Part shown: positions 5,236-54,740 of the stretch, piece by piece
How positions within the stretch are numbered: position 1 is the stretch's first letter
How the letters are laid out: each line of letters begins with the position of its first letter
Assembly (NCBI GenBank): GCA_039804165.1
Contig: JBDRZZ010000005.1
Span: 27,290 to 91,289 of the forward strand
Origin: a candidate division WOR-3 bacterium
GTDB taxonomy: Bacteria; Hydrothermota; UBA3072
Length of the DNA: 64,000 bases
Direction: 5' to 3'
The notes under the pieces: model-generated
Told to the model about the DNA's origin: nothing
The model's input: only the letters and a program-made list of their open reading frames with translations
The model's database searches: none
Program-made: the position numbers and the translations under genes

Positions 5236-7683
5236 GTGAAATTTGGATATTTCGATGATGAGAATAGAGAGTATGTAATTACAACTCCAAAAGTTCCTTA
5301 TCCCTGGATAAATTATCTTGGATATGATAATTTTTTCTCTTTGATTTCCAATACAGGTGGGGGATATAGTTTTTATAAAGATGCGAGACTTAGGAGGATA
5401 ACTCGGTATCGTTATAACAATATTCCTTTAGATGAGGGTGGAAAATATTTTTATATAAATGAAAATGGGGATGTTTGGTGCCCAGGGTGGAGGCCTGTTA
5501 AGGTTAGTTTGGATAAATATGAATGTCATCATGGTCTTGGTTATACAAAAATTATTGGGAGAAGAAATGGACTTGAAGCGGAAGTTTTGTATACCGTTCC
5601 ATTAGGGTTTGATGGGGAGGTTGAATGGGTTCACTTAGTAAATAAATCAAATTATAAGAAAAAATTTAAACTTTTCTCTTTTGTTGAGTTTTGTCTCTGG
5701 AACGCCTTGGATGATATGACAAATTTCCAAAGGAACTTTTCAACTGGAGAAGTGGAGATTAAAGGTTCGGTCATTTATCACAAAACTGAATATAGAGAAA
5801 GAAGAAATCATTTTGCTTTTTATTCGGTAAATTCAGAGATAGAAGGTTATGACACGCAATTAGAAGATTTTCTTGGACTTTATAATGGGCTTTCTTCTCC
5901 AGTAGCAGTTTTTGAAGGTAAGCCAAGAAATTCAGAAGCTCATGGTTGGCAACCTATTGCTTCTCATTGTATTGGAGTGGAACTTTTACCTGGAGAAGCA
6001 AAAGATTACATATTTATTCTTGGTTATGTGGAAAATTCTCCTGAGGAGAAATGGGAAAGTCCAGGAGTTATTAACAAAAAGAAAGCTGAAGAGATGATAA
6101 ATAAAATAAAGACAAAAGAGGATGTAGAAAGAGAATTATCTTCTATAAAGAAGTTTTGGGATGAGCTTCTTTCAGTTTATGAACTTGAACATCCGGATGA
6201 GAAACTTGTAAGGATGGTAAATATTTGGAATCCCTATCAGTGTATAATAACATATCATATGGCAAGAAGTGCTTCGTATTTTGAATCTGGTATTGGAAGA
6301 GGAATTGGTTTTAGAGATTCAAATCAGGATCAATTGGGTTGTATACATCAAATACCTGAGAAATCAAAACAGAGGATTCTTGATCTTGCTGCAACTCAGA
6401 AAGAGGATGGTAGTGCTTATCATCAATATCAACCTCTAACAAAGAGAGGAAACAATGAGATTGGAAGCAATTTCAACGATGATCCTCTTTGGCTCATAGC
6501 TTCTGTAGCTGCTTATATAAAAGAAACTGGAGATTATTCTATTTTAGAAGAGTCTGTTCCTTTTGATAATGACGAAAGTAAAAAAGGAAGTTTGTTTGAG
6601 CATATTAAAAGGTCCTTTTATCATGTTGTTAACAATTTGGGTCCTCATAATTTACCTTTAATAGGGAGAGCCGATTGGAATGATTGTCTCAATCTTAACT
6701 GTTTTTCAACAAATCCTGATGAAAGCTTCCAGACGACCACAAATAAAGAAGGGAAAGTAGCGGAGTCCATTTTAATTGCAGGGATGTTTGTTTATTATGG
6801 AAAAGAATTTAAAAAAATATGTGAGAATATTGGAGAAAAAGAAGAGGCTGAAAAAGCAGAAGAACATATAAATAGGATGATAGAAAATATAAAGAAGTAT
6901 GGATGGGATGGAGAATGGTTTTTACGGGCTTATGATGATAATGGAAATAAAGTTGGAAGTAAGGAAAATGAGGAGGGTCAGATATTTATAGAACCTCAAG
7001 GGTTCTGTGTAATGGCAGAGATTGGTCTTGAAGATGGAAAGGCAATAAAAGCTTTAGATTCGGTGAAAGAAAGACTTGACTGTGAATATGGGATTGTTTT
7101 ATTAAACCCTGCTTATACAAAATATTATTTGAATCTAGGTGAGGTTTCTTCTTATCCTCCTGGTTATAAAGAGAATGCCGCAGTTTTTTGTCATAATAAC
7201 CCTTGGATTATGATTGCCGAGACTGTTTTAGGAAGAGGAGATAGAGCTTTTGAGTATTACAAAAAAATTGCTCCGGCTTATCTTGAGGATATAAGTGAAA
7301 TTCATAAAACAGAGCCTTATGTTTACTCTCAGATGATTGCTGGGAAAGATGCTTATAAAAAAGGTGAAGCAAAGAATTCCTGGCTTACTGGAACTAGTGC
7401 TTGGAATTATGTAGCAATAACTCAGTATATTCTTGGGATAAGACCTGATTATGATGGTCTTATTGTTGACCCTTGTATTCCTTCTAATTGGGAAGGTTAT
7501 AAAGTTAATAGAAAATTCAGAAATGCAACTTATCAGATTGAGGTTAAAAATCCTGAGAAGGTTTCTAAGGGAGTAAAAATTTTAAGAGTGGATGGAGAAA
7601 AGATTCAGGGAAATAAAGTTCCAGTTTTTGGGGATGGAAAAGTGCATAGAGTTGAAGTAATACTTGGAAGAAAGGAGGCATAA
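5236..7683 (+). CDS. GH94 disaccharide phosphorylase (cellobiose phosphorylase-like)
   Basis: N-terminus [29 protein letters not shown]...[25 protein letters not shown] is the GH94 signature. About 815 aa. Confidence 0.85.
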
Positions 7684-18564: not shown

Positions 18565-18636
18565 GCGGGAATAGCTCAGCGGTAGAGCGTCACCTTGCCA
18601 AGGTGAAAGTCGCGGGTTCAAATCCCGTTTCCCGCT
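18565..18636 (+). tRNA. tRNA-Gly (anticodon GCC)
   Basis: Cloverleaf gcgggaa/ttcccgc acceptor stem, anticodon loop ccttGCCaagg and TPsiC arm gcgggttcaaatcccgt. No encoded CCA. Confidence 0.9.
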
Positions 18637-18644
18637 TTTTATTT

Positions 18645-18716
18645 GGCGGCATAGCCAAGTGGAAAGGCAACGGTCTGCAAAACCGTTACACCCCGGTTCG
18701 AATCCGGGTGCCGCCT
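18645..18716 (+). tRNA. tRNA-Cys (anticodon GCA)
   Basis: ggcggca/tgccgcc acceptor stem, anticodon loop gtctGCAaaac and TPsiC arm ccggttcgaatccgg. Confidence 0.9.
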
Positions 18717-46607: not shown

Positions 46608-47351
46608 ATGCTTAAATTAATAATTACCTCTGATTACGAAGAAATGAGTAAACTTGCCGCAAAATTAATAGCCGAAGAAATAAAGAAAAGAGAGCAAATT
46701 GTGTTAGGGCTCGCCACAGGAAATACGCCGCTTGGAACTTATAAAGAACTTATCAGATTACACAAAGAGGAGGGCCTTGATTTTTCAGATGTGATTACCT
46801 TTAACTTAGATGAATATCTTGGGCTTTCTCCAACAGATAGAAGAAGTTATAATTTTTATATGTGGGAAAATTTGTTTTATGAAATAAATATAAGACGAGA
46901 GAATGTTCATATTCCAAGAGGTGACACTTCAAATCCTGAAGAATTTTGTAAGTGGTATGAAGAGGAGATCAAGAGAGTGGGGGGGATTGATTTACAACTT
47001 CTTGGAATAGGTCGGGATGGTCATATTGGTTTTAATGAGCCAGGTTCGTCTTTTTCTGGGAGAACGCGGGTTAAAAAGCTTGCAGAAGTAACAATTAGAG
47101 ATAATGCGAGATTTTTTGATAATAAGATAGAAGATGTTCCTCATTATGCGATTTCAATGGGGATTGGCACAATTTTGGAAGCTGAAAAGATAATTCTTAT
47201 TGCAAATGGGGAACATAAAGCAGAAATTTGTGCCCGGTTTATAGAAGGTCCTGTTACAAAGCAGGTTCCTGCTTCTTCTTTACAATTGCATTCTGATGTT
47301 ACTGTGATTCTTGATAAAGCTGCGGCTTCCCGGCTTGAAAGAACAAGATGA
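46608..47351 (+). CDS. nagB: Glucosamine-6-phosphate deaminase
   Basis: VLGLATGNTPLGTYKELIRLHKEEGLDFSDVITFNLDEYLGL...GIGRDGHIGFNEPGS. Confidence 0.85.
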   Translation: MLKLIITSDYEEMSKLAAKLIAEEIKKREQIVLGLATGNTPLGTYKELIRLHKEEGLDFSDVITFNLDEYLGLSPTDRRSYNFYMWENLFYEINIRRENVHIPRGDTSNPEEFCKWYEEEIKRVGGIDLQLLGIGRDGHIGFNEPGSSFSGRTRVKKLAEVTIRDNARFFDNKIEDVPHYAISMGIGTILEAEKIILIANGEHKAEICARFIEGPVTKQVPASSLQLHSDVTVILDKAAASRLERTR

Positions 47352-48184
47352 AGGAAAGAAAAGTAAAAATTGCCTGGTATGGGAAACATTTTGGGGAAGA
47401 ACCACCTTTAGTGGGAGAGCTTTCTTTTGGGAATGGAAAAAATGGAGCTGGCACAATTTTCTTTTCCGGATGCAATCTTCATTGTGTTTTTTGTCAGAAT
47501 TATCAGATTTCTCAAGAAAATCTTGGGAGGGAATATTCCATTTTAGACTTAGCTGAGATTATGCTTGGGCTTGAGAGAGATGGTGCGCTTAATATTGATC
47601 TTGTTACTCCTACAATTTGGTGGAAAGAGATAAAAGAAGCTATTGTTATTGCTCGGAGAAAAGGGCTTTCTATTCCAATTGTTTGGAATTCGAATGCTTA
47701 TGAAAGTGTAAATATGCTTAGAGAAATGAAAGGTTTTGTTGATATTTATCTACCTGATTTTAAATATATGGATGATAAATTGGCAATGAAATATTCAAGA
47801 GCTTTTGGTTATTCTAAAATAGCTGAGAAAGCAATTAGGGAAATGTATAATCAGGTCGGTAATTTATATTTGAAGGACCAAATTGCAAAAAGAGGTTTAA
47901 TCATTCGGCATTTAATTCTCCCTGGGTATTTAGATAATAGTTTTTGTGTTCTAAAGAAAATTGCAGAGATTGATAAAGAGATTTATGTAAGCTTAATGAC
48001 TCAATATTACCCTCTGTATCTTGCAAAAAATTTTCCTGAAATAAATCGTTCTCTTACTGAAGATGAAATTATCTACTCAGAGAATAAGAGACTGGAACTA
48101 GGGCTTTTAAATGGTTGGAACCAAGAAAGAGGTTCTGGAGAGGTATTTTTGCCAGACTTTAGGAAACAAAATCCCTTTTCCTAA
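47348..48184 (+). CDS. Radical SAM protein (PflA/PflX-like activating-enzyme family)
   Basis: CNLHCVFCQN is a CxxxCxxC motif. The start overlaps the nagB stop (ATGA). Confidence 0.7.
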   Translation: MKERKVKIAWYGKHFGEEPPLVGELSFGNGKNGAGTIFFSGCNLHCVFCQNYQISQENLGREYSILDLAEIMLGLERDGALNIDLVTPTIWWKEIKEAIVIARRKGLSIPIVWNSNAYESVNMLREMKGFVDIYLPDFKYMDDKLAMKYSRAFGYSKIAEKAIREMYNQVGNLYLKDQIAKRGLIIRHLILPGYLDNSFCVLKKIAEIDKEIYVSLMTQYYPLYLAKNFPEINRSLTEDEIIYSENKRLELGLLNGWNQERGSGEVFLPDFRKQNPFS

Positions 48185-48188
48185 CTTA

Positions 48189-48367
48189 GGGTCAGGTCTT
48201 GATTTTTGAATTTACTCCAAATTTTAATAACTTTAGGGTTTCGATACCAACTTACAAAAATCTTAAGAGGATTCTCTATCAACATAAGTTATAGAAAGGA
48301 AGACAATCCTTCGGCAATCTAAAAATTATCTAGAAATCATAGGAATTCAAAAATCAAGACCTGACCC
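48189..48367. repeat. 179-bp element bounded by 24-bp perfect inverted repeats. It may be a long hairpin/bidirectional terminator, a structured RNA or a MITE-like element
   Basis: gggtcaggtcttgatttttgaatt (48189-48212) is exactly complementary to aattcaaaaatcaagacctgaccc (48344-48367). It fills the convergent intergenic space between the radical-SAM gene and the PAS kinase gene. Confidence 0.6.
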
Positions 48368-48375
48368 CAAAGGTA

Positions 48376-49470
48376 TTAACTTTTGGGGATAAAGAGGGTG
48401 AATTTAGAACCTTTATCCTTTTCGCTTTCTACTTCGATCCAACCACCCATTCCTCTTATTACGCTGTTGACAAAGAAAAGTCCTATTCCTGAGCCTCCTT
48501 CGTCTCCATTTTCTTCTGTTTTTGTTGTAAAGAAAAGTTCAAAGATTTTTTCTTTTACCGCAGGTTCCATACCGCATCCATTATCAGAAACTGATATAGC
48601 GACATATTCTTTTTCCTTTTCGTCTTTCTCAAGGCGGAAGATATTTCTGACTTCAAAGTGAATTTTACCCTCGTTTGATTCTCCAATTGCATCTTTTGCG
48701 TTCATTAGTAGGTTTATAAGCACTTGATGAAGTTGGTCTGGGTCTCCTATTACTAAGGGTTCTGGATCAAAATAAGAAGCTGTAATTGTTAATTTTTTGG
48801 ATAATGCTTGTTGACCTAAATGAACTACTTCTTTTACCACATCAATTACATTAAAGAGTTTCTTCTCTCCTCTAATTTTTCTTGTGTTAGAGAGAAGAGC
48901 TTTTAAGAGATTTTTTATTCTCCTTACCCCATCCGCACCTAATTGGACGTCCTCAAGGACTTCAGGGTCCTTTATGTATTCTAAGGCAGCATTAATTCCA
49001 TATGAAACTTCCATTAATAAATTGTTTGCTTCATGGGCTATTCCCCCAATAAGTTGTCCAATTGTTGCAAGCCTTCTTGAAGAAAGCATCCTTTTTTGGA
49101 GTATTTCTAATTTTGAGACATCTTTTGCCATTGATAAACCCCTAATTTGTGAACTCAAATTAAGGAAAATAGAACTCCATTCGTAAATTCTTTTACTTCC
49201 AAATTCAGGCTTTATTTCTATATTTTGGATGATTATAAAAGGCTCTTTTTCATCAAAGGCTTCTCCTTCAATATTTCCCTCTTTTTGAGCTTTAATTGAT
49301 TCCTGTAACTCACGCATAAGTGTTGGTTCTAAGATTTCCTTTATTGGTTTTCCAAATTCTTGTTCTGCCCTTCCATTCCAGAAAAGAATTTTGTAATCTT
49401 TGTCCCAAGCGATAAGAGGAACAGGAATAAAATCAAGTAAAAATCCCAATTCTTTTTCTATCTCTATCAT
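48376..49470 (-). CDS. Cytoplasmic PAS-domain sensor histidine kinase (orphan, no adjacent response regulator)
   Basis: PAS-like N-terminus, H-box LIGGIAHEANNLL, then N/G1/G2 boxes (DNGCGM, GSGIGL). No TM segments. Confidence 0.8.
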   Translation of the reverse strand: MIEIEKELGFLLDFIPVPLIAWDKDYKILFWNGRAEQEFGKPIKEILEPTLMRELQESIKAQKEGNIEGEAFDEKEPFIIIQNIEIKPEFGSKRIYEWSSIFLNLSSQIRGLSMAKDVSKLEILQKRMLSSRRLATIGQLIGGIAHEANNLLMEVSYGINAALEYIKDPEVLEDVQLGADGVRRIKNLLKALLSNTRKIRGEKKLFNVIDVVKEVVHLGQQALSKKLTITASYFDPEPLVIGDPDQLHQVLINLLMNAKDAIGESNEGKIHFEVRNIFRLEKDEKEKEYVAISVSDNGCGMEPAVKEKIFELFFTTKTEENGDEGGSGIGLFFVNSVIRGMGGWIEVESEKDKGSKFTLFIPKS

Positions 49471-49487
49471 AAAAGGTTTCTAAAAAT

Positions 49488-49540
49488 AAAGGGAAGAGAG
49501 TAGGACTTTCTACTCTCTAAACCCTTTATTTTTGTTTTAT
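49488..49540 (-). terminator. Rho-independent terminator after the Hfq-like gene
   Basis: aaaggg-aag-agagagtag-gacttt-ctactctct-aaa-cccttt, followed by T-runs on both strands. Confidence 0.55.
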
Positions 49541-49542
49541 TT

Positions 49543-49740
49543 TTATTCCTCCCAGTCTTTCACTTCAAGATGAGAAATCGCACGATGGGAGACGAAAACA
49601 GATCGGTTGTTCGCCATTGGGGTTTCCACTTTTAGAAATAAACCTCTATCATTTCTTCCAGTTACAGTCCCTTCAAACTTTGATCCATCTATCGTTATTA
49701 TCTTTACATGTCTTCTTAACCCCCTTTTCCAGTCCACCAT
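49543..49740 (-). CDS. Divergent Hfq-like / Sm-fold small protein (65 aa)
   Basis: VKIITIDGSKFEGTVTGRNDRGLFLKVE aligns with the Sm1 motif, and VFVSHRAISHLEV matches the Hfq Sm2 motif YKHAIS. RBS AAAGGAGGAG. Confidence 0.5.
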   Translation of the reverse strand: MVDWKRGLRRHVKIITIDGSKFEGTVTGRNDRGLFLKVETPMANNRSVFVSHRAISHLEVKDWEE

Positions 49741-49764
49741 TTCTCCTCCTTTATTTTTTACTTT

Positions 49765-49902
49765 TTAACAATAACCTACAGTTCCATCACCGCTTAAGAC
49801 AATCATTCCAATTTCTGGATTACTTAAATTTTCTAATTTTGTTCCCTTTTTCAAAGACCCAACAAAACTTAATAAGATTAATAATACATTTAAAGTAACC
49901 AT
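49765..49902 (-). CDS. Unannotated 45-aa peptide with a hydrophobic N-terminus (MVTLNVLLILLSFVGSLKKGTKLENLSNPEIGMIVLSGDGTVGYC)
   Basis: ATG preceded by AAAGGAGGT at 7-nt spacing and TAA stop. Lies between a sigma54 promoter and the Hfq-like gene. Too short for the ORF track. Confidence 0.45.
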   Translation of the reverse strand: MVTLNVLLILLSFVGSLKKGTKLENLSNPEIGMIVLSGDGTVGYC

Positions 49903-50114: not shown

Positions 50115-53100
50115 TTACTTTTTTATTTCAAATTCTTTAATTAGTCTATATAGATGTCTTTTTGAAATTTTTAAGTTTTCTGCGGTTTTTTTTATATCCC
50201 AATTTGTTTCTTCAAGAGCTAAAAGGATTGTTTCTCTTTCCCATTTTTTCTTTATCTCTGGCCATGAGACCTTTTTCTCTTCTATTTTTTCTCTTTTTAC
50301 TTCTTCTGGTAGGTCTTCTTCTTTTATATATTCTCCTTTACATTTAATTATAGAAATTTCTACAATATTTCTTAATTCTCTAATATTTCCGGGGAAGGGA
50401 TAATTTTTCAAAATCTCAATTGCTTCTTCTGTAAAGCCCTTTATCTTCTTTTCTCTTTTTTCTCTAAATATTTTTAAATAATGTTCAAGTAAAATGGGGA
50501 TATCAATTTTTCTTTCCCTTAGGGGAGGGATTGATATGTTTATTTGGTTTAAACGATAAAGGAGGTCTTCTCTAAATTCTCTTAAGAAAGCCATTTGTTC
50601 GATATCCTTATTTGTTGCAGAAATAATTCTAACATCGACCTTTCTTATTTCTGTTTCTCCCACCCTTCTAATTTCTCCAAGGTCTGTAACTCGCAAGAGT
50701 CCTGCTTGGATTGAAGGAGGAGCATCTCCAATCTCATCCAAGAAGAGAGTTCCTCCGTTTGCCTCTTCGCACATTCCCTTTTTGTCTTTTATTGCTCCGG
50801 TGAATGAACCCTTTTTGTGACCAAATAATTCACTCTGAAGCAAGGTTTCTGTTAGGGAACTACAATCCACAGTTACAAAGGGCCTATTTTTTCTTTTGCT
50901 TAAAGAGTGGATCGTTCTTGCAATAAGTTCTTTTCCAGTTCCTGTTTCTCCTGTGATTAAAACATTTACATCTGTTGGAGCAATTTCTTCTATTGTTTTA
51001 TATATCTTTTGCATTGGTTCTGAAATCCCAATTATTGAATGGAAAGAATGTGGAGGGGAAGTCATTTTTCTTAACCGAGCTAACTCCTCTTTTATTTGGT
51101 AAAGGAGATCTCCTTTTGCAAAAAGAATGCCGAGAATCCTTCCAATTGACTGTAAGAACTCTTTATCAGAAGGAAGGAAAATGTCTTTTTTTATTGTTGA
51201 ATCAAGATAAAGAACTCCATAAATTTTGTTTTTATAAGTTATTGGAACACATAAAATTGAACGGATTTTATTTCTCTGAATGGAATCCATTTTGTAAAAT
51301 CTTTCATCTATTGTTGCATCTCCTGTGATTATGACTTCTCCTTTTATAACTTTTTCAGTTATTGTTTTTGAGATCTTCCTTGCGTCCTGGAGAGTTATTT
51401 CATCTATGTTGTAAGAAGAAACAATAATATTTTTATCATTCTCTTTTAAAATTAGAGCTCCTCTTTCTGCATTTAGAAATTCTGTAATTGTGGATAAAGC
51501 TTCATCAAACCTTTTTTCCGAGTCAATTGAAGAAAGGAGTTTACTTATTTCGTCATAGGTGTAGATATATCCTTTTCTTAATGAAGTTTTTCTAGCGCAT
51601 TCTGCAAGAAGTTTGGTTGTTTCATTTAAGAAAAGTTCTGATTTTAGCTCCTTAAAAACTTCCTCTGCTTTTTTTAATTCTTCAATTGCTTCTTCTATTC
51701 TATTTTTTTGAAGTAAAATGGTTCCTTTTTTCAATTGTGTTTGAGCAATGTGGAAAGGTAGGCTAATCTTAGAGAAAAGCTTAATTGCTTTATCGCAAAA
51801 CCTTGGTTCCTCGTTTATAAAACCCCAAGAAGAAAGAAGCTTCCCTTTTTCAAAATTTGATTTTAAGGAAGAGATTTTCTCAAAATAAGGTTTTAGAGTT
51901 TCTACTGCCTCTTCTTTTTTTCCTTCTAAGAATAAAACTTCCGAAAGTTGTCGAGCAATATCTCTTTCATCTCTTGGGTCTCCTTTTGTTCTTTTTAAAA
52001 CCTCTCTAAAAATCTTCTCAGCTTCTTTTAGTTCTCCTTTCCATCTAAGAATTGTTCCTTCTAAGTCTCTTAAGTCATATTTTTCTTCTTTTAATTCATT
52101 TCTTAATCTTTCAACCTCAAGCCAATTTCCTTTATATAGCTCTCCTTCAAGTAATTTTGCCTTTAAGAAAGGTTGAAGCTTTCCATGCCTATTTTTAAAA
52201 TCTTCTATTTTCTCTTTTAATTTTTCCCAAAAACCAGTATTAAGATAAAGAATAGATAAACTTGTTAGACAAGGAGATTCAAGTTCTCCAATTTTTAATT
52301 TTTTGAAAATTGAAAGGGCCTCTTCAAGTTGTTTTAAAGCTTCCTTATAGTTATCAAGGCGTAAAAGGGAAATTCCTTTATATGTTATAAATATTGCTTC
52401 ATTTACAAAATCTCGTTCTTTTTTAGATATCTCAAGACATTTCTCAAAATATTCAATTGCCTCTTCATGTTCTTCTTTCTGTTGATTCGCAATCCCTCCA
52501 AGGGTTAAGAAATGTCTTTTTAAGGTAGGGGAGAGGTCTTTTTTTAGTTCCTCTTCAACAATTTTTAATGTTTTCTCAAAATCTCCTTTTGCGCAGAGAA
52601 ACCTTCCTTCAACAAATTTTAATTTTGGTGGTAATTCTTTTGCTTCATTTTTGTATTCCAAAATGAGTTTTTCTGCCTCTTCTATTCTTTCCTGTCTTAC
52701 AAGAAAATAACCTAACCAATAAATCCCTTCTTCTTTTAATTTTCCCTTTGCAAATTTAATTCCTTCTCTAAAATATTTTTCAGCTTCTTCTTTATTCTCA
52801 AGCCTATCAAAAATAGCTCCAATTTTTAATAAATAAAAAGGATTCTCTTTTTTCTTTTCTAAAAGTTCTTTGTAAATGGATAGGGCTTCATTTATCTTTC
52901 CTCCTAATTCAAAAACTCTTCCAAGAACCATCCGAAGAATTGGCTCATCTTTTAAAAGAAGAGCTTCTTGTAAAAATTTTCCAGCTTCCTGATAATCTTT
53001 CTCTTTTATTTTCTTTTTTGCTATTTTTATTAAAGATTCTCTATATTCTTTTTCTTTACCTAAGTCTTTTTCAAGAAGATGTAAAGACTCAGGAGTGGAG

Positions 53101-54740
53101 ATTCTTTTTTTTATTCTTTTATAAAGTTCTTCCTTTTCTTTTTGGGTCAGTTTTTTATAGAAGAAATCTCTTGTCCAATTAGAAAGAAATTGAATTCCTT
53201 TCTTATCTTTTTTTAATATGTTCTTTGAGGAAAGAGAATTAACCAAAGTGTAAGGATTTTTTATTTCAAAAATTGAAATTGAATTTAAAGGGAAGCTTTC
53301 CTGGAAAATGGATAGTTTTTTTAATAGTTCCTTTTCTTCTAAGGGAAGCTTTTCGAGTTTTGCTTTTAAATTTTCTTCAATACCTTTTGGTAAGGAAATA
53401 GATAAGGGAAGTTTCTCATTAAAGAAAATTTCATCTCCTTTTCTTTCAATTGCTCCTTCTAAAATGAGATTCTCGATTAGCTGATTTAAAATAAGAGGAT
53501 TCCCTTCGCTTTGTTTAAGGAGAAAAGAAGTTAGCTCTTTTTTATTTATAATCTTATTAGGAAAATTTTTGTTAATAATGAATTCAATTTCTTCTTTGTT
53601 TAAGGGAGAAAGGGTAAAAGAAGTTGTAATATCTTCTAATTCTTCTAATTCGTTTTCTTTATCAGGGCTGCTTATCACAATTAAAATAGGGCTTAACCTT
53701 ATTGTTGTTTTATTTTCTTTTAAGATAACTTTTATTTCCTGAAGAGAAGCATTATCAATAAATATAACAATGGGTTCTGTTATTCTTTCTTCTTTAAAGA
53801 AAAGATGGATTTCTCCGGAACTCATTTCTTTTATGTTTATTCCCTTTATAAGAGCTCTTATTTTGAATTCCCTTAAAAGAGCTGTTTTGCCAATTCCTTT
53901 TTCTCCTTTTATTAATAAAATGTGAGGCTCAGGCAGGTTGGAAAGATAAAACTCGAAATCCTTTATTTCTTTTTCTCTTCCAGAAAAAATTGTAATAAAT
54001 GAGAGCTTTCTTTCTTCTATTGTGGTTCCAAGAAGAATTTCTCTTTTTACATCTTCTATATTCTTAATCCTATTTTCAATTTGGGGTTCAATCATCCTCT
54101 GAATTAGAAAGTTTAATTCCTCTGGAATTAAAGGATTATATCTTTCTGGTGGGGGAAGACGGTTTTTTAGTTTTTCCTCTATTATTTTTGACAGGTTTCC
54201 TTTAAATGCTTTTTCTCCTGTTAAAATCTCGTAAAGAATTATGCCAATAGAGTAAATGTCAGAAGAAAAAGAAGGGACTTCTGTAAAGGCTTCTGGAGAT
54301 GTATATGTAGGAGTAATTATTTCCGGATTATATCCTGGATCGATCAACTTGACGTTATTTCTTTCATCCACAAATATGTGATTTGGTTTAAGATCGCCAC
54401 AGACAATTCCACGAGAATGTAGAACTGAAAGAGCATCAAGAATGGAGTTAAGAATATTTTTGATTTTGTCGAAATCTTCTTTTTGAGACGGTTTTACTTT
54501 GAAGACTTTGTCGATTGTTGGAGAAGAGATTTTTTCCATTGAAAAGCCACATTTTTCACCATCTTCAAACCACTCGTAAACAGTTACAAAATGAGGGTCT
54601 CTAATTTCAGAGAGAAGTTTAAATTGTTCGTAAAGTAAATCCTTCTTTAGAAGTTCTCCAACTTTGTATACAATTTCTCCTTTTTCGTAAATCTTTGCAA
54701 AATTTCCTTTTTTAATAAGATTAAATTTAGTTAAATCCAT
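50115..54740 (-). CDS. Giant multidomain sigma54-dependent transcriptional activator: Ser/Thr-kinase-like domain, AAA_16/STAND-type P-loop NTPase, TPR array, GAF, sigma54-interaction AAA+ domain and Fis-type HTH
   Basis: Kinase-like motifs (CGDLKPNH, DPG, SPE, DIYSIG). Walker A GEKGIGKT. About 500 aa of TPR-like repeats. GAF (ILCVPITYKNKIYGVLYLD). EBP core (VLITGETGTGKE, GSFTGA, LFLDEIGD). C-terminal HTH (ISKRHLYRLIKEF). No receiver domain. Confidence 0.85.
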   Translation of the reverse strand: MDLTKFNLIKKGNFAKIYEKGEIVYKVGELLKKDLLYEQFKLLSEIRDPHFVTVYEWFEDGEKCGFSMEKISSPTIDKVFKVKPSQKEDFDKIKNILNSILDALSVLHSRGIVCGDLKPNHIFVDERNNVKLIDPGYNPEIITPTYTSPEAFTEVPSFSSDIYSIGIILYEILTGEKAFKGNLSKIIEEKLKNRLPPPERYNPLIPEELNFLIQRMIEPQIENRIKNIEDVKREILLGTTIEERKLSFITIFSGREKEIKDFEFYLSNLPEPHILLIKGEKGIGKTALLREFKIRALIKGINIKEMSSGEIHLFFKEERITEPIVIFIDNASLQEIKVILKENKTTIRLSPILIVISSPDKENELEELEDITTSFTLSPLNKEEIEFIINKNFPNKIINKKELTSFLLKQSEGNPLILNQLIENLILEGAIERKGDEIFFNEKLPLSISLPKGIEENLKAKLEKLPLEEKELLKKLSIFQESFPLNSISIFEIKNPYTLVNSLSSKNILKKDKKGIQFLSNWTRDFFYKKLTQKEKEELYKRIKKRISTPESLHLLEKDLGKEKEYRESLIKIAKKKIKEKDYQEAGKFLQEALLLKDEPILRMVLGRVFELGGKINEALSIYKELLEKKKENPFYLLKIGAIFDRLENKEEAEKYFREGIKFAKGKLKEEGIYWLGYFLVRQERIEEAEKLILEYKNEAKELPPKLKFVEGRFLCAKGDFEKTLKIVEEELKKDLSPTLKRHFLTLGGIANQQKEEHEEAIEYFEKCLEISKKERDFVNEAIFITYKGISLLRLDNYKEALKQLEEALSIFKKLKIGELESPCLTSLSILYLNTGFWEKLKEKIEDFKNRHGKLQPFLKAKLLEGELYKGNWLEVERLRNELKEEKYDLRDLEGTILRWKGELKEAEKIFREVLKRTKGDPRDERDIARQLSEVLFLEGKKEEAVETLKPYFEKISSLKSNFEKGKLLSSWGFINEEPRFCDKAIKLFSKISLPFHIAQTQLKKGTILLQKNRIEEAIEELKKAEEVFKELKSELFLNETTKLLAECARKTSLRKGYIYTYDEISKLLSSIDSEKRFDEALSTITEFLNAERGALILKENDKNIIVSSYNIDEITLQDARKISKTITEKVIKGEVIITGDATIDERFYKMDSIQRNKIRSILCVPITYKNKIYGVLYLDSTIKKDIFLPSDKEFLQSIGRILGILFAKGDLLYQIKEELARLRKMTSPPHSFHSIIGISEPMQKIYKTIEEIAPTDVNVLITGETGTGKELIARTIHSLSKRKNRPFVTVDCSSLTETLLQSELFGHKKGSFTGAIKDKKGMCEEANGGTLFLDEIGDAPPSIQAGLLRVTDLGEIRRVGETEIRKVDVRIISATNKDIEQMAFLREFREDLLYRLNQINISIPPLRERKIDIPILLEHYLKIFREKREKKIKGFTEEAIEILKNYPFPGNIRELRNIVEISIIKCKGEYIKEEDLPEEVKREKIEEKKVSWPEIKKKWERETILLALEETNWDIKKTAENLKISKRHLYRLIKEFEIKK

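Follow-up and report, generated by a model that had tools for sequence, protein, structure and literature searches.

What is the long, perfect inverted repeat that fills the gap between two convergent genes in the metagenome-assembled genome (MAG) of a candidate division WOR-3 bacterium? The repeat lies in a 64-kb stretch of contig JBDRZZ010000005.1 (hereafter the window, meaning the whole stretch of DNA that was analysed), where a radical-SAM gene and a PAS-domain histidine kinase gene run toward each other and a 179-bp element fills the space between them. An initial annotation, made from the sequence alone, offered three candidates: a mobile remnant resembling a miniature inverted-repeat transposable element (MITE), a structured non-coding RNA, or an unusually long terminator or insulator. 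The first of these was supported and could be sharpened. The interval 48188–48368 is very probably a non-autonomous dimer of terminal inverted repeats (TIRs) of the TIRYT/TIRtron family, REPIN- or MITE-like in kind, with 131 nt of unrelated filler between the repeats and no gene. Its parts are as follows.

48188..48212, plus strand: left terminal inverted repeat, AGGGTCAGGTCTTGATTTTTGAATT, with one mismatch (the outermost base) to the family consensus GGGGTCAGGTCTTGATTTTTGAATT

48344..48368, minus strand: right terminal inverted repeat, which reads GGGGTCAGGTCTTGATTTTTGAATT on the minus strand and is exact to the 25-nt family consensus

48213..48343, no strand: AT-rich core of 131 nt, 29.8% GC, with no recognisable relative, no meaningful open reading frame (ORF) and no structure of its own

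The inverted repeat is as first described. The 24-mer GGGTCAGGTCTTGATTTTTGAATT at 48189–48212 and its exact reverse complement at 48344–48367 were both verified in the sequence, and the two arms are perfectly identical over these 24 nt. Arm pairing grows to 27 nt at 96% complementarity (48186–48212 with 48344–48370, 131 nt between). By the family consensus the element spans 48188–48368, or 181 bp, the left end reading AGGG in place of GGGG. The description of an AT-rich core in DNA of about 30% GC was fair: the window has 33.3% GC, the core 29.8% (slightly below the window average) and the arms 37.5%. The spacing also stands, as the left arm begins at the fifth base past the radical-SAM stop and 8 nt lead from the right arm to the kinase stop.

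Chance does not account for such a repeat. In 64 kb with the window's composition one would expect about 1e-6 pairs of perfect 24-nt inverted repeats within 400 nt; 100 shuffles gave no 24-mer match, and the window has no other near-perfect long inverted repeat. No target-site duplication had been noticed around the element, and this holds: the left flank reads ...CCTAACTT(A) and the right flank AAAGGTATT..., and no duplication was found in 29 related TIR pairs either. Its absence fits the Y1/HUH class of enzymes, to which the transposases described below belong, and is no objection to a mobile origin.

GTDB, represented by one genome per species, was scanned with the inner 20-mer of the arm, GGTCAGGTCTTGATTTTTGA. 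The 20-mer was found in 96 genome stretches from about 20 phylum-level lineages, against about one chance match expected by our own estimate. The MAGs concerned are labelled Elusimicrobia, Aerophobetes, Desulfofervidaceae, Desulfovermiculus, Clostridia, Thermotogae, WOR-3, TA06, Stahlbacteria, Dehalococcoidia, Atribacter, Sumerlaeota, Actinomycetota, Acidobacteriota, Nitrospiraceae and others, and one was binned as Aenigmatarchaeota. Matches are often numerous within a MAG and close to contig ends. Three Streptococcus matches, which share a different, coding context, are probably unrelated. From 105 unique contexts a conserved block emerges, GGGGTCAGGTCTTGATTTTTGA[A/C]TT; the right arm of the window agrees with it at 25 of 25 positions, and the left arm is off only at the outermost G.

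Downstream of the arm there is often a gene. At about 20–30 of 109 occurrences an ATG stands 23–25 nt past the 20-mer and opens the N-terminus M-x-RPLRIE[FY]PGAVYH. One of the fetched loci, which are cited here by L numbers, holds a complete unit of 921 bp (L014), with an arm at 6022 on the plus strand, an arm ending at 6942 on the minus strand and a single ORF of 291/300 amino acids inside. The encoded protein matches the Pfam domain Y1_Tnp ('Transposase IS200 like') at 6.7e-14, together with the C-terminal helix–turn–helix (HTH) domains HTH_38 and HTH_23. Against the NCBIfam equivalog NF047646, 'REP-associated tyrosine transposase' (where REP stands for repetitive extragenic palindromic), it scores 83.8 bits for a cut-off of 80. 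Alignment of six such proteins showed an invariant NHYHL (HUH) motif and the motif RY..LNP.RA. As a single sequence the L014 protein found no match in the PDB; the best solved match of the six-protein profile was 4ER8, E. coli TnpA_REP (E 0.004), and the alignment matches up the HUH motif and the Tyr-x-x-x-NP region. At the exact-match loci the end of the ORF (...NS[KQ][IF]KT-stop) and its TGA sit within the 3' arm. Full-length TIR–gene–TIR units (L014, L067 and L092) measure 921–1075 bp, and the gene products of the family have about 285–320 amino acids.

This first set of loci was picked by a DNA motif; an independent check was made with genes picked by protein homology alone. A protein search with the alignment returned at least 7,999 relatives at E<=1e-30, most of those listed being 281–300 amino acids long. 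Their source names are 'REP element-mobilizing transposase RayT', 'REP-associated tyrosine transposase' and 'transposase', and many lie on contigs of about 1 kb. Inverted GGGGTCAGGTCTTG arms flank all four of the genes picked in this way: P0232 (Smithellaceae), P0159 (Thermodesulfovibrionia), P0235 (Bacillota) and P0202. In these genes the 5' arm lies 30–60 nt before the ATG and the 3' arm at or just past the stop codon. The outer 14 nt of the TIR (GGGGTCAGGTCTTG) are invariant across the four, and the inner half varies with lineage.

The two ends of an element need not be alike. In many elements with a gene or gene fragment (L014, L024, L028, L076, L091 and L067) the inner halves of the two TIRs are not the same: GGGGTCAGGTCTTGATTTTTGAATT forms the 5' TIR and GGGGTCAGGTCTTGAATTGTGAATTT, read as reverse complement, the 3' TIR, and the ORF stop falls within the 3' TIR. 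The left arm of the window has the variant AGGGTCAGG, which serves TIRYT genes as 5' arm in L105, L110 and L115 as well.

For P0232, an identical TIRYT of 283 amino acids (L104–L111) occurs, in different assemblies, in four combinations of two upstream (DUF7079 or peptide deformylase) and two downstream (GGDEF or TPR) contexts; 63 collection blocks list the exact protein, and their flanks are combined in several ways. The four combinations imply two or more copies in the genome and either recombination or chimeric assembly across the repeat.

Genes of this build have been described before. In Di Nocera, De Gregorio & Rocco 2013 (PMC3733652), RAYT-like genes with long TIRs are called 'TIRtrons' and their enzymes 'TIRYTs'; many of the TIRs share the motif GGGGWSAS, which also appears in PMC6006769, and TIRs make up repeat families of moderate abundance, 'organized as REPs in dimers or clusters'. 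On the minus strand the right arm of the window opens with GGGGTCAG, which agrees with the published motif at 8 of 8 positions, and the left arm, opening with AGGGTCAG, agrees at 7 of 8. In Quentin et al. 2018 (PMC6006769), 20 of 26 TIRYTs fall in TnpA_REP subclass 2.1, whose hallmark is a C-terminal Bac_DnaA_C, HTH_23 or HTH_28 domain, and searches near subclass 2.1 genes gave no REP-like sequences. The proteins found here share this architecture. A full-text literature search found TIRYT in these two papers only and did not find the arm sequence.

The arms of the element are TIRs of the TIRtron family, and TIR–TIR units that have no gene, or only a fragment of one, are frequent in other genomes. 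Among the fetched loci, 29 head-to-head TIR pairs were present, of which three are full length and most of the others 45–480 bp, a range that takes in the 181 bp of the window element. Some keep only the first 19–91 codons of the gene (130 bp in L079, for example), and others have no gene remnant (L001, 83 bp; L051, 57 bp; L082, 117 bp; L004, 230 bp). All 25 short dimers fall outside ORFs of 150 or more amino acids. A TIR of the 5' type stands on both sides in the window dimer, L001, L051, L079 and L082; ORF-based calling gave no gene orientation for 19 of 26 dimers, a set that includes the window. Lineages related to the host of the window also have TIR dimers or TIRYT remnants, namely WOR-3 bin77 (L020, with a TIR dimer of 121 bp), TA06 (L079) and Stahlbacteria (L072).

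One Desulfovermiculus MAG carries at least 10 arm-bearing stretches. Three derivatives of about 320 bp in one Desulfovermiculus MAG have 91% mean column identity over the alignment (about 95% between the TIRs by inspection). The left flanks of the three are unrelated, and the right flanks have about 10 nt in common beyond the TIR. These near-identical copies at unrelated sites indicate that short units bounded by the arms multiply.

Dimers of about 230 bp with a similar interior were observed in L004 (1617–1846), L033, L060 and L043 (6153–6387), in MAGs that bear the labels Aerophobetes, Clostridia and, for an archaeon, Aenigmatarchaeota. A single cold-seep data set is the source of several of these MAGs, and the sharing could reflect horizontal transfer or binning contamination. 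In an Aerophobetes MAG (L007, 5320–7556), inverted arms lie 2.2 kb apart around non-transposase ORFs of 171, 402 and 81 amino acids, and the left arm provides the final codons (GVRS-stop) of an upstream ORF of 297 amino acids. Either the unit carries cargo, or the two are solo arms that have nothing to do with each other. The plasmid and phage collections gave chance-level matches alone (E >= 0.2). The viral collection held a sole exact 22-mer match, a solo arm at 1624–1645 of a 9,094-bp IMG/VR sequence that is predicted viral and has no TIRYT gene (L117).

The junctions of the elements frequently carry short tandem reiterations, in which 7–13 nt of local flank followed by GGGGTC(A) stand in one to three copies with a period of 14–17 nt. 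In the other form of junction, whole arms are reiterated with a period of 20–51 nt. Reiterations at 5' junctions occur in L012 (2440–2530), L042, L047, L091, L072, L032, L024 and L059, and further reiterated junctions in L020 (2280–2340), L104 (1855–1975), L112 (920–970) and L115 (610–700). They were present at 11 of 162 arms of the first set and in several independently fetched loci. On the pattern of letters, they look like repeated cutting and rejoining at GGGGTC^A and may mark the cleavage or target site of the enzyme; such a cleavage site is suggested because tandem reiterations of flank plus GGGGTC(A) recur at the junctions.

The core of the window element has no counterpart in this material. 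When compared by blastn-short with the 96 family loci it gave a best score of 30.2 bits, shuffled cores giving a mean of 28.2 and a maximum of 32.2. A 15-nt match in L007 was rejected as homology, as it sits in the unrelated ORF of 81 amino acids. A metagenome scan with a core 20-mer returned two chance contigs with only 21 nt in common. The ORFs of the core are of 31–38 amino acids only. By eye, CTTAAGAGGATTC...CTATCAACAT resembles CTTAAGGATAGAG...TTTATCACAT, but neither alignment nor translated search supported the core as a decayed 5' end of a TIRYT gene, and this idea was dropped.

These comparisons bear on a rival history, in which a full-length TIRtron inserted at this site and lost its gene by internal deletion and decay, so that the ends were left behind and the unit never transposed as a miniature. 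Deletion derivatives with recognisable gene fragments are indeed common elsewhere (L079, L040, L075, L044, L090 and L091), and in the window the element is present once. Yet the core has no nucleotide similarity to any TIRYT-bearing locus, a translated TIRYT search of the window was empty, and the arms are perfect over 24 nt although decay that erased the gene should have struck them too. Moreover, both arms are of the 5' type, whereas many gene-bearing elements have a distinct 3' TIR, GGGGTCAGGTCTTGAATTGTGA; a simple internal deletion in situ therefore fails to explain the element. We regard this history as unlikely.

The inverted repeat has marked consequences for folding. The whole element folds far better than its shuffles, both as RNA (z -6.6 and -7.4) and as single-stranded DNA (z -6.3), and the RNA stem of 24–27 bp has a ΔG of -57 to -66 kcal/mol. 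The core alone (z -0.10 and -0.63) is no better than shuffles, so the folding signal comes entirely from the arms. Taken singly, an arm does not fold back on itself (ΔG of -0.3 and -0.2 kcal/mol; z of +0.98).

A structured non-coding RNA gene closed by a long terminal helix would also fold better than shuffles as a whole, and the core has a weak sigma-70-like match on its minus strand (9 of 12 positions). Nevertheless, this candidate found no support. The structure of the core is at chance level, and promoter-like matches in the region number 9 against 8.2 in shuffles. A search against Rfam, as the initial annotation had suggested, gave nothing at the gathering threshold at the element; at E<=1 it returned plant MIR hairpin models alone, with 19–24 bits against gathering thresholds of 117–230 (at least 95 below). 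No homolog of the core occurs in the fetched genome loci or in the metagenome 20-mer scan, which leaves no conservation or covariation in favour of an RNA, and the arms are absent from the related loci described below. An RNA gene is thus extremely improbable here. The only Rfam matches of gathering level in the window are two adjacent tRNA genes on the plus strand (18565–18636 and 18645–18716). Readings as a CRISPR array, as a tandem repeat or as a feature related to tRNA or tmRNA were dismissed too, as the architecture is a single inverted pair and Rfam finds just the two tRNAs.

The genes on either side lie outside the element.

47348..48184, plus strand: radical-SAM gene, pyruvate-formate-lyase-activating-enzyme-like (Pfam Radical_SAM and Fer4_12)

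48376..49470, minus strand: convergent PAS/HATPase_c histidine kinase gene

The radical-SAM protein is 100% identical to MEO0293279.1 of a candidate division WOR-3 MAG, and its nearest relatives in the databases searched are about 70–73% identical. Its C-terminus is intact when compared with homologs, and the homolog in L097 has the same ending. Without the element the two stop codons would sit only about 10 bp apart. The convergent radical-SAM/PAS-kinase pair is kept in L102 and L103; L101 has one extra gene between the two, and L097 and L100 differ downstream. The arms were not found at any of these related loci (L097 and L100–L103), including those with the same convergent pair, and so the element is not a conserved feature of the locus. 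The intergenic regions of the relatives are different and filled with repeats, and the comparison thus shows non-conservation rather than a clean empty site.

Past the end of the radical-SAM gene, those relatives have intergenic regions of 370–590 bp (L102, 3886–4316; L101, 3850–4441 and 5330–5450; L097, 5847–6219). These regions are packed with different short repeats, AGGACGCAGATnAACGCAGAT, CCCAAATCCTAATCCCTAAAA, CGGCTAACCGCTTnCCGCT and CACAAAGAACACAGAG, some of them as inverted pairs, and none of the four occurs in the window. They may represent another miniature repeat family in WOR-3-like genomes. Further along the window (50115–54740, minus strand) a multidomain protein of 1541 amino acids has a Ser/Thr protein kinase domain together with an AAA_16/STAND-like region, TPR repeats, a GAF domain and the AAA+ module of a sigma-54 activator; it is syntenic in L102 and L103, where it has 1561 amino acids.

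The position exactly between two convergent stops, together with the very stable stem of 24–27 bp, invites the view that the host evolved the repeat as a bidirectional terminator or a stabiliser of mRNA 3' ends, unrelated to mobile DNA. REP-type repeats, according to PMC3733652, favour sites downstream of genes and between convergent ORFs. As an origin, however, the proposed long terminator or insulator finds no place: the arms are identical to the ends of transposase elements in about 20 phyla, which independent evolution in situ cannot explain, and relatives with the same convergent pair have an entirely different intergenic sequence. A consensus scan of 47000–49800 for intrinsic terminators called none at 48186–48370. 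The stem has 37.5% GC and a loop of 131 nt, and no U-tract follows it, the next bases being CAAAGGTATTAAC on the plus strand and CTAAGTTAGGAAAAG on the minus strand. We consider this origin very unlikely. What may stand of the proposal is termination as a side effect of the hairpin, and an exapted role is conceivable.

In the preferred reading, a TIRYT whose gene lies elsewhere in the genome, or was once present, would have brought the TIR dimer to this site or formed it here. The enzyme is predicted to carry out a Y1/HUH reaction on single-stranded DNA, with the arms pairing into a hairpin of 24–27 bp, as for IS200/IS605 TnpA and TnpA_REP. Its cut-and-rejoin chemistry would leave no target-site duplication. 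The ends might be recognised by the extra HTH domain or through the pairing of arm with arm; since a lone arm makes no hairpin, recognition must work otherwise than in classical REPs. In RNA, read-through transcripts of either gene would end in the 24–27-bp stem, which could hinder polymerase or 3' exonucleases or serve RNase III as a cleavage site. It is not a canonical terminator; a block to 3' exonucleases or a substrate of RNase III is plausible. Any such effect would be a by-product and not the reason for the existence of the sequence.

Several points weigh against the reading of the element as a mobile TIR dimer. Within the 64-kb window it occurs once, even at a tolerance of 8 mismatches in 25, and tblastn with a TIRYT protein found no TIRYT gene there; the evidence for multiple copies is drawn from other genomes. 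Because the core matches no other family member, the 179-bp unit is not demonstrated to move as a unit. Both arms correspond to the 5' TIR of the exact-match gene-bearing elements, many of which have a slightly different 3' TIR. No relative above about 73% protein identity was present in the searched databases, and consequently no precise empty site was seen. The single-stranded hairpin mechanism is an extrapolation from IS608 and TnpA_REP, and the literature search found no biochemical work on TIRYT enzymes. With these points taken into account, the TIR dimer is still the reading that we hold to be very probable.

A wider proposal can be made with much less assurance. The window element may be the tip of a single, now-active TIRtron lineage that is spreading horizontally among distant hosts (about 20 phyla of uncultured anaerobes, with one MAG binned as archaeal) and whose ends are essentially invariant over 14–25 nt. 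Such a lineage would make gene-less TIR dimers as HUH-mobilised MITEs and would cleave at GGGGTC^A, its TIRs replacing the subterminal hairpins of IS200/IS605. We regard this as a tentative idea that is rather more doubtful than not.

For annotation, the hairpin is to be treated as transposon debris and masked as a repeat, not recorded as an RNA gene or a regulatory site. The 179-bp element itself is unremarkable, and the pattern at the level of the family is of more interest. The TIRYT/TIRtron class is very large, with at least 7,999 proteins, and is little covered in the literature. Its near-invariant GGGGTCAGGTCTTG ends provide a simple DNA signature by which the elements and their miniature derivatives can be found in MAGs, whose assemblies TIRYT elements probably break. 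The TIR-bounded architecture and the reiterated junctions, as read from the DNA, suggest that the HUH enzymes of this class recognise their ends in another way than IS608 and TnpA_REP do.

How does the element compare with systems already described? Classical bacterial MITEs, such as the Correia elements of Neisseria, ERIC and RUP, are non-coding, intergenic units of 100–300 bp with TIRs of about 25 nt, which form hairpins when transcribed; Correia hairpins are reported to affect mRNA processing. They derive from insertion sequences with a DDE transposase and are flanked by target-site duplications, for example TA for Correia. The window element likewise is small, has TIRs and lacks coding capacity. 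It differs in having no target-site duplication, and its autonomous relatives encode an HUH tyrosine enzyme. With neither a duplication nor a DDE parent, it is not a classical MITE.

Elements of the IS200/IS605 group, such as IS608, share with the TIRYT family the Y1_Tnp domain with its HUH motif and catalytic tyrosine, and they too leave no target-site duplication. Their ends are not inverted repeats of each other. PMC6006769 describes those ends as subterminal hairpins, whereas here the ends are 25-nt TIRs without an internal hairpin and the protein has an extra HTH domain.

REPINs (Bertels & Rainey 2011, PMC3116915) resemble the element in several respects: an inverted pair of repeats with a spacer gives a long single-strand hairpin, and the units are extragenic and non-coding and have no target-site duplication. 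The associated enzyme, moreover, passes the 'REP-associated tyrosine transposase' model, and its profile finds 4ER8. The window arm, in contrast, is not palindromic and carries no GTAG or CGTC tag. A spacer of 131 nt also seems long for a REPIN. TIRYT genes, judged in the other genomes, are multicopy and decay like insertion sequences, whereas RAYTs are single-copy and vertically inherited. The element is not a REPIN because its units are non-palindromic and lack the GTAG tag.

The closest likeness is to the TIRtrons. The arms open with GGGGWSAS and elsewhere flank, in inverted orientation, a Y1/HUH protein of about 285–320 amino acids with a C-terminal HTH domain. TIR copies at a distance from the gene, single, in dimers or in clusters, also belong to the family, in agreement with PMC3733652. 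There are differences too. The window has the dimer alone, with neither a TIRYT gene nor a second copy in 64 kb; candidate division WOR-3 is not among the hosts named in the excerpted text of PMC3733652 and PMC6006769; and where these excerpts give a motif of 8 nt, here the first 14 nt (GGGGTCAGGTCTTG) are invariant across the four independently chosen genes and 20–25 nt are identical across many phyla. The element joins the known but obscure TIRYT/TIRtron kind, and is an ordinary remnant of mobile DNA, neither a novel RNA gene nor a terminator of a special sort.

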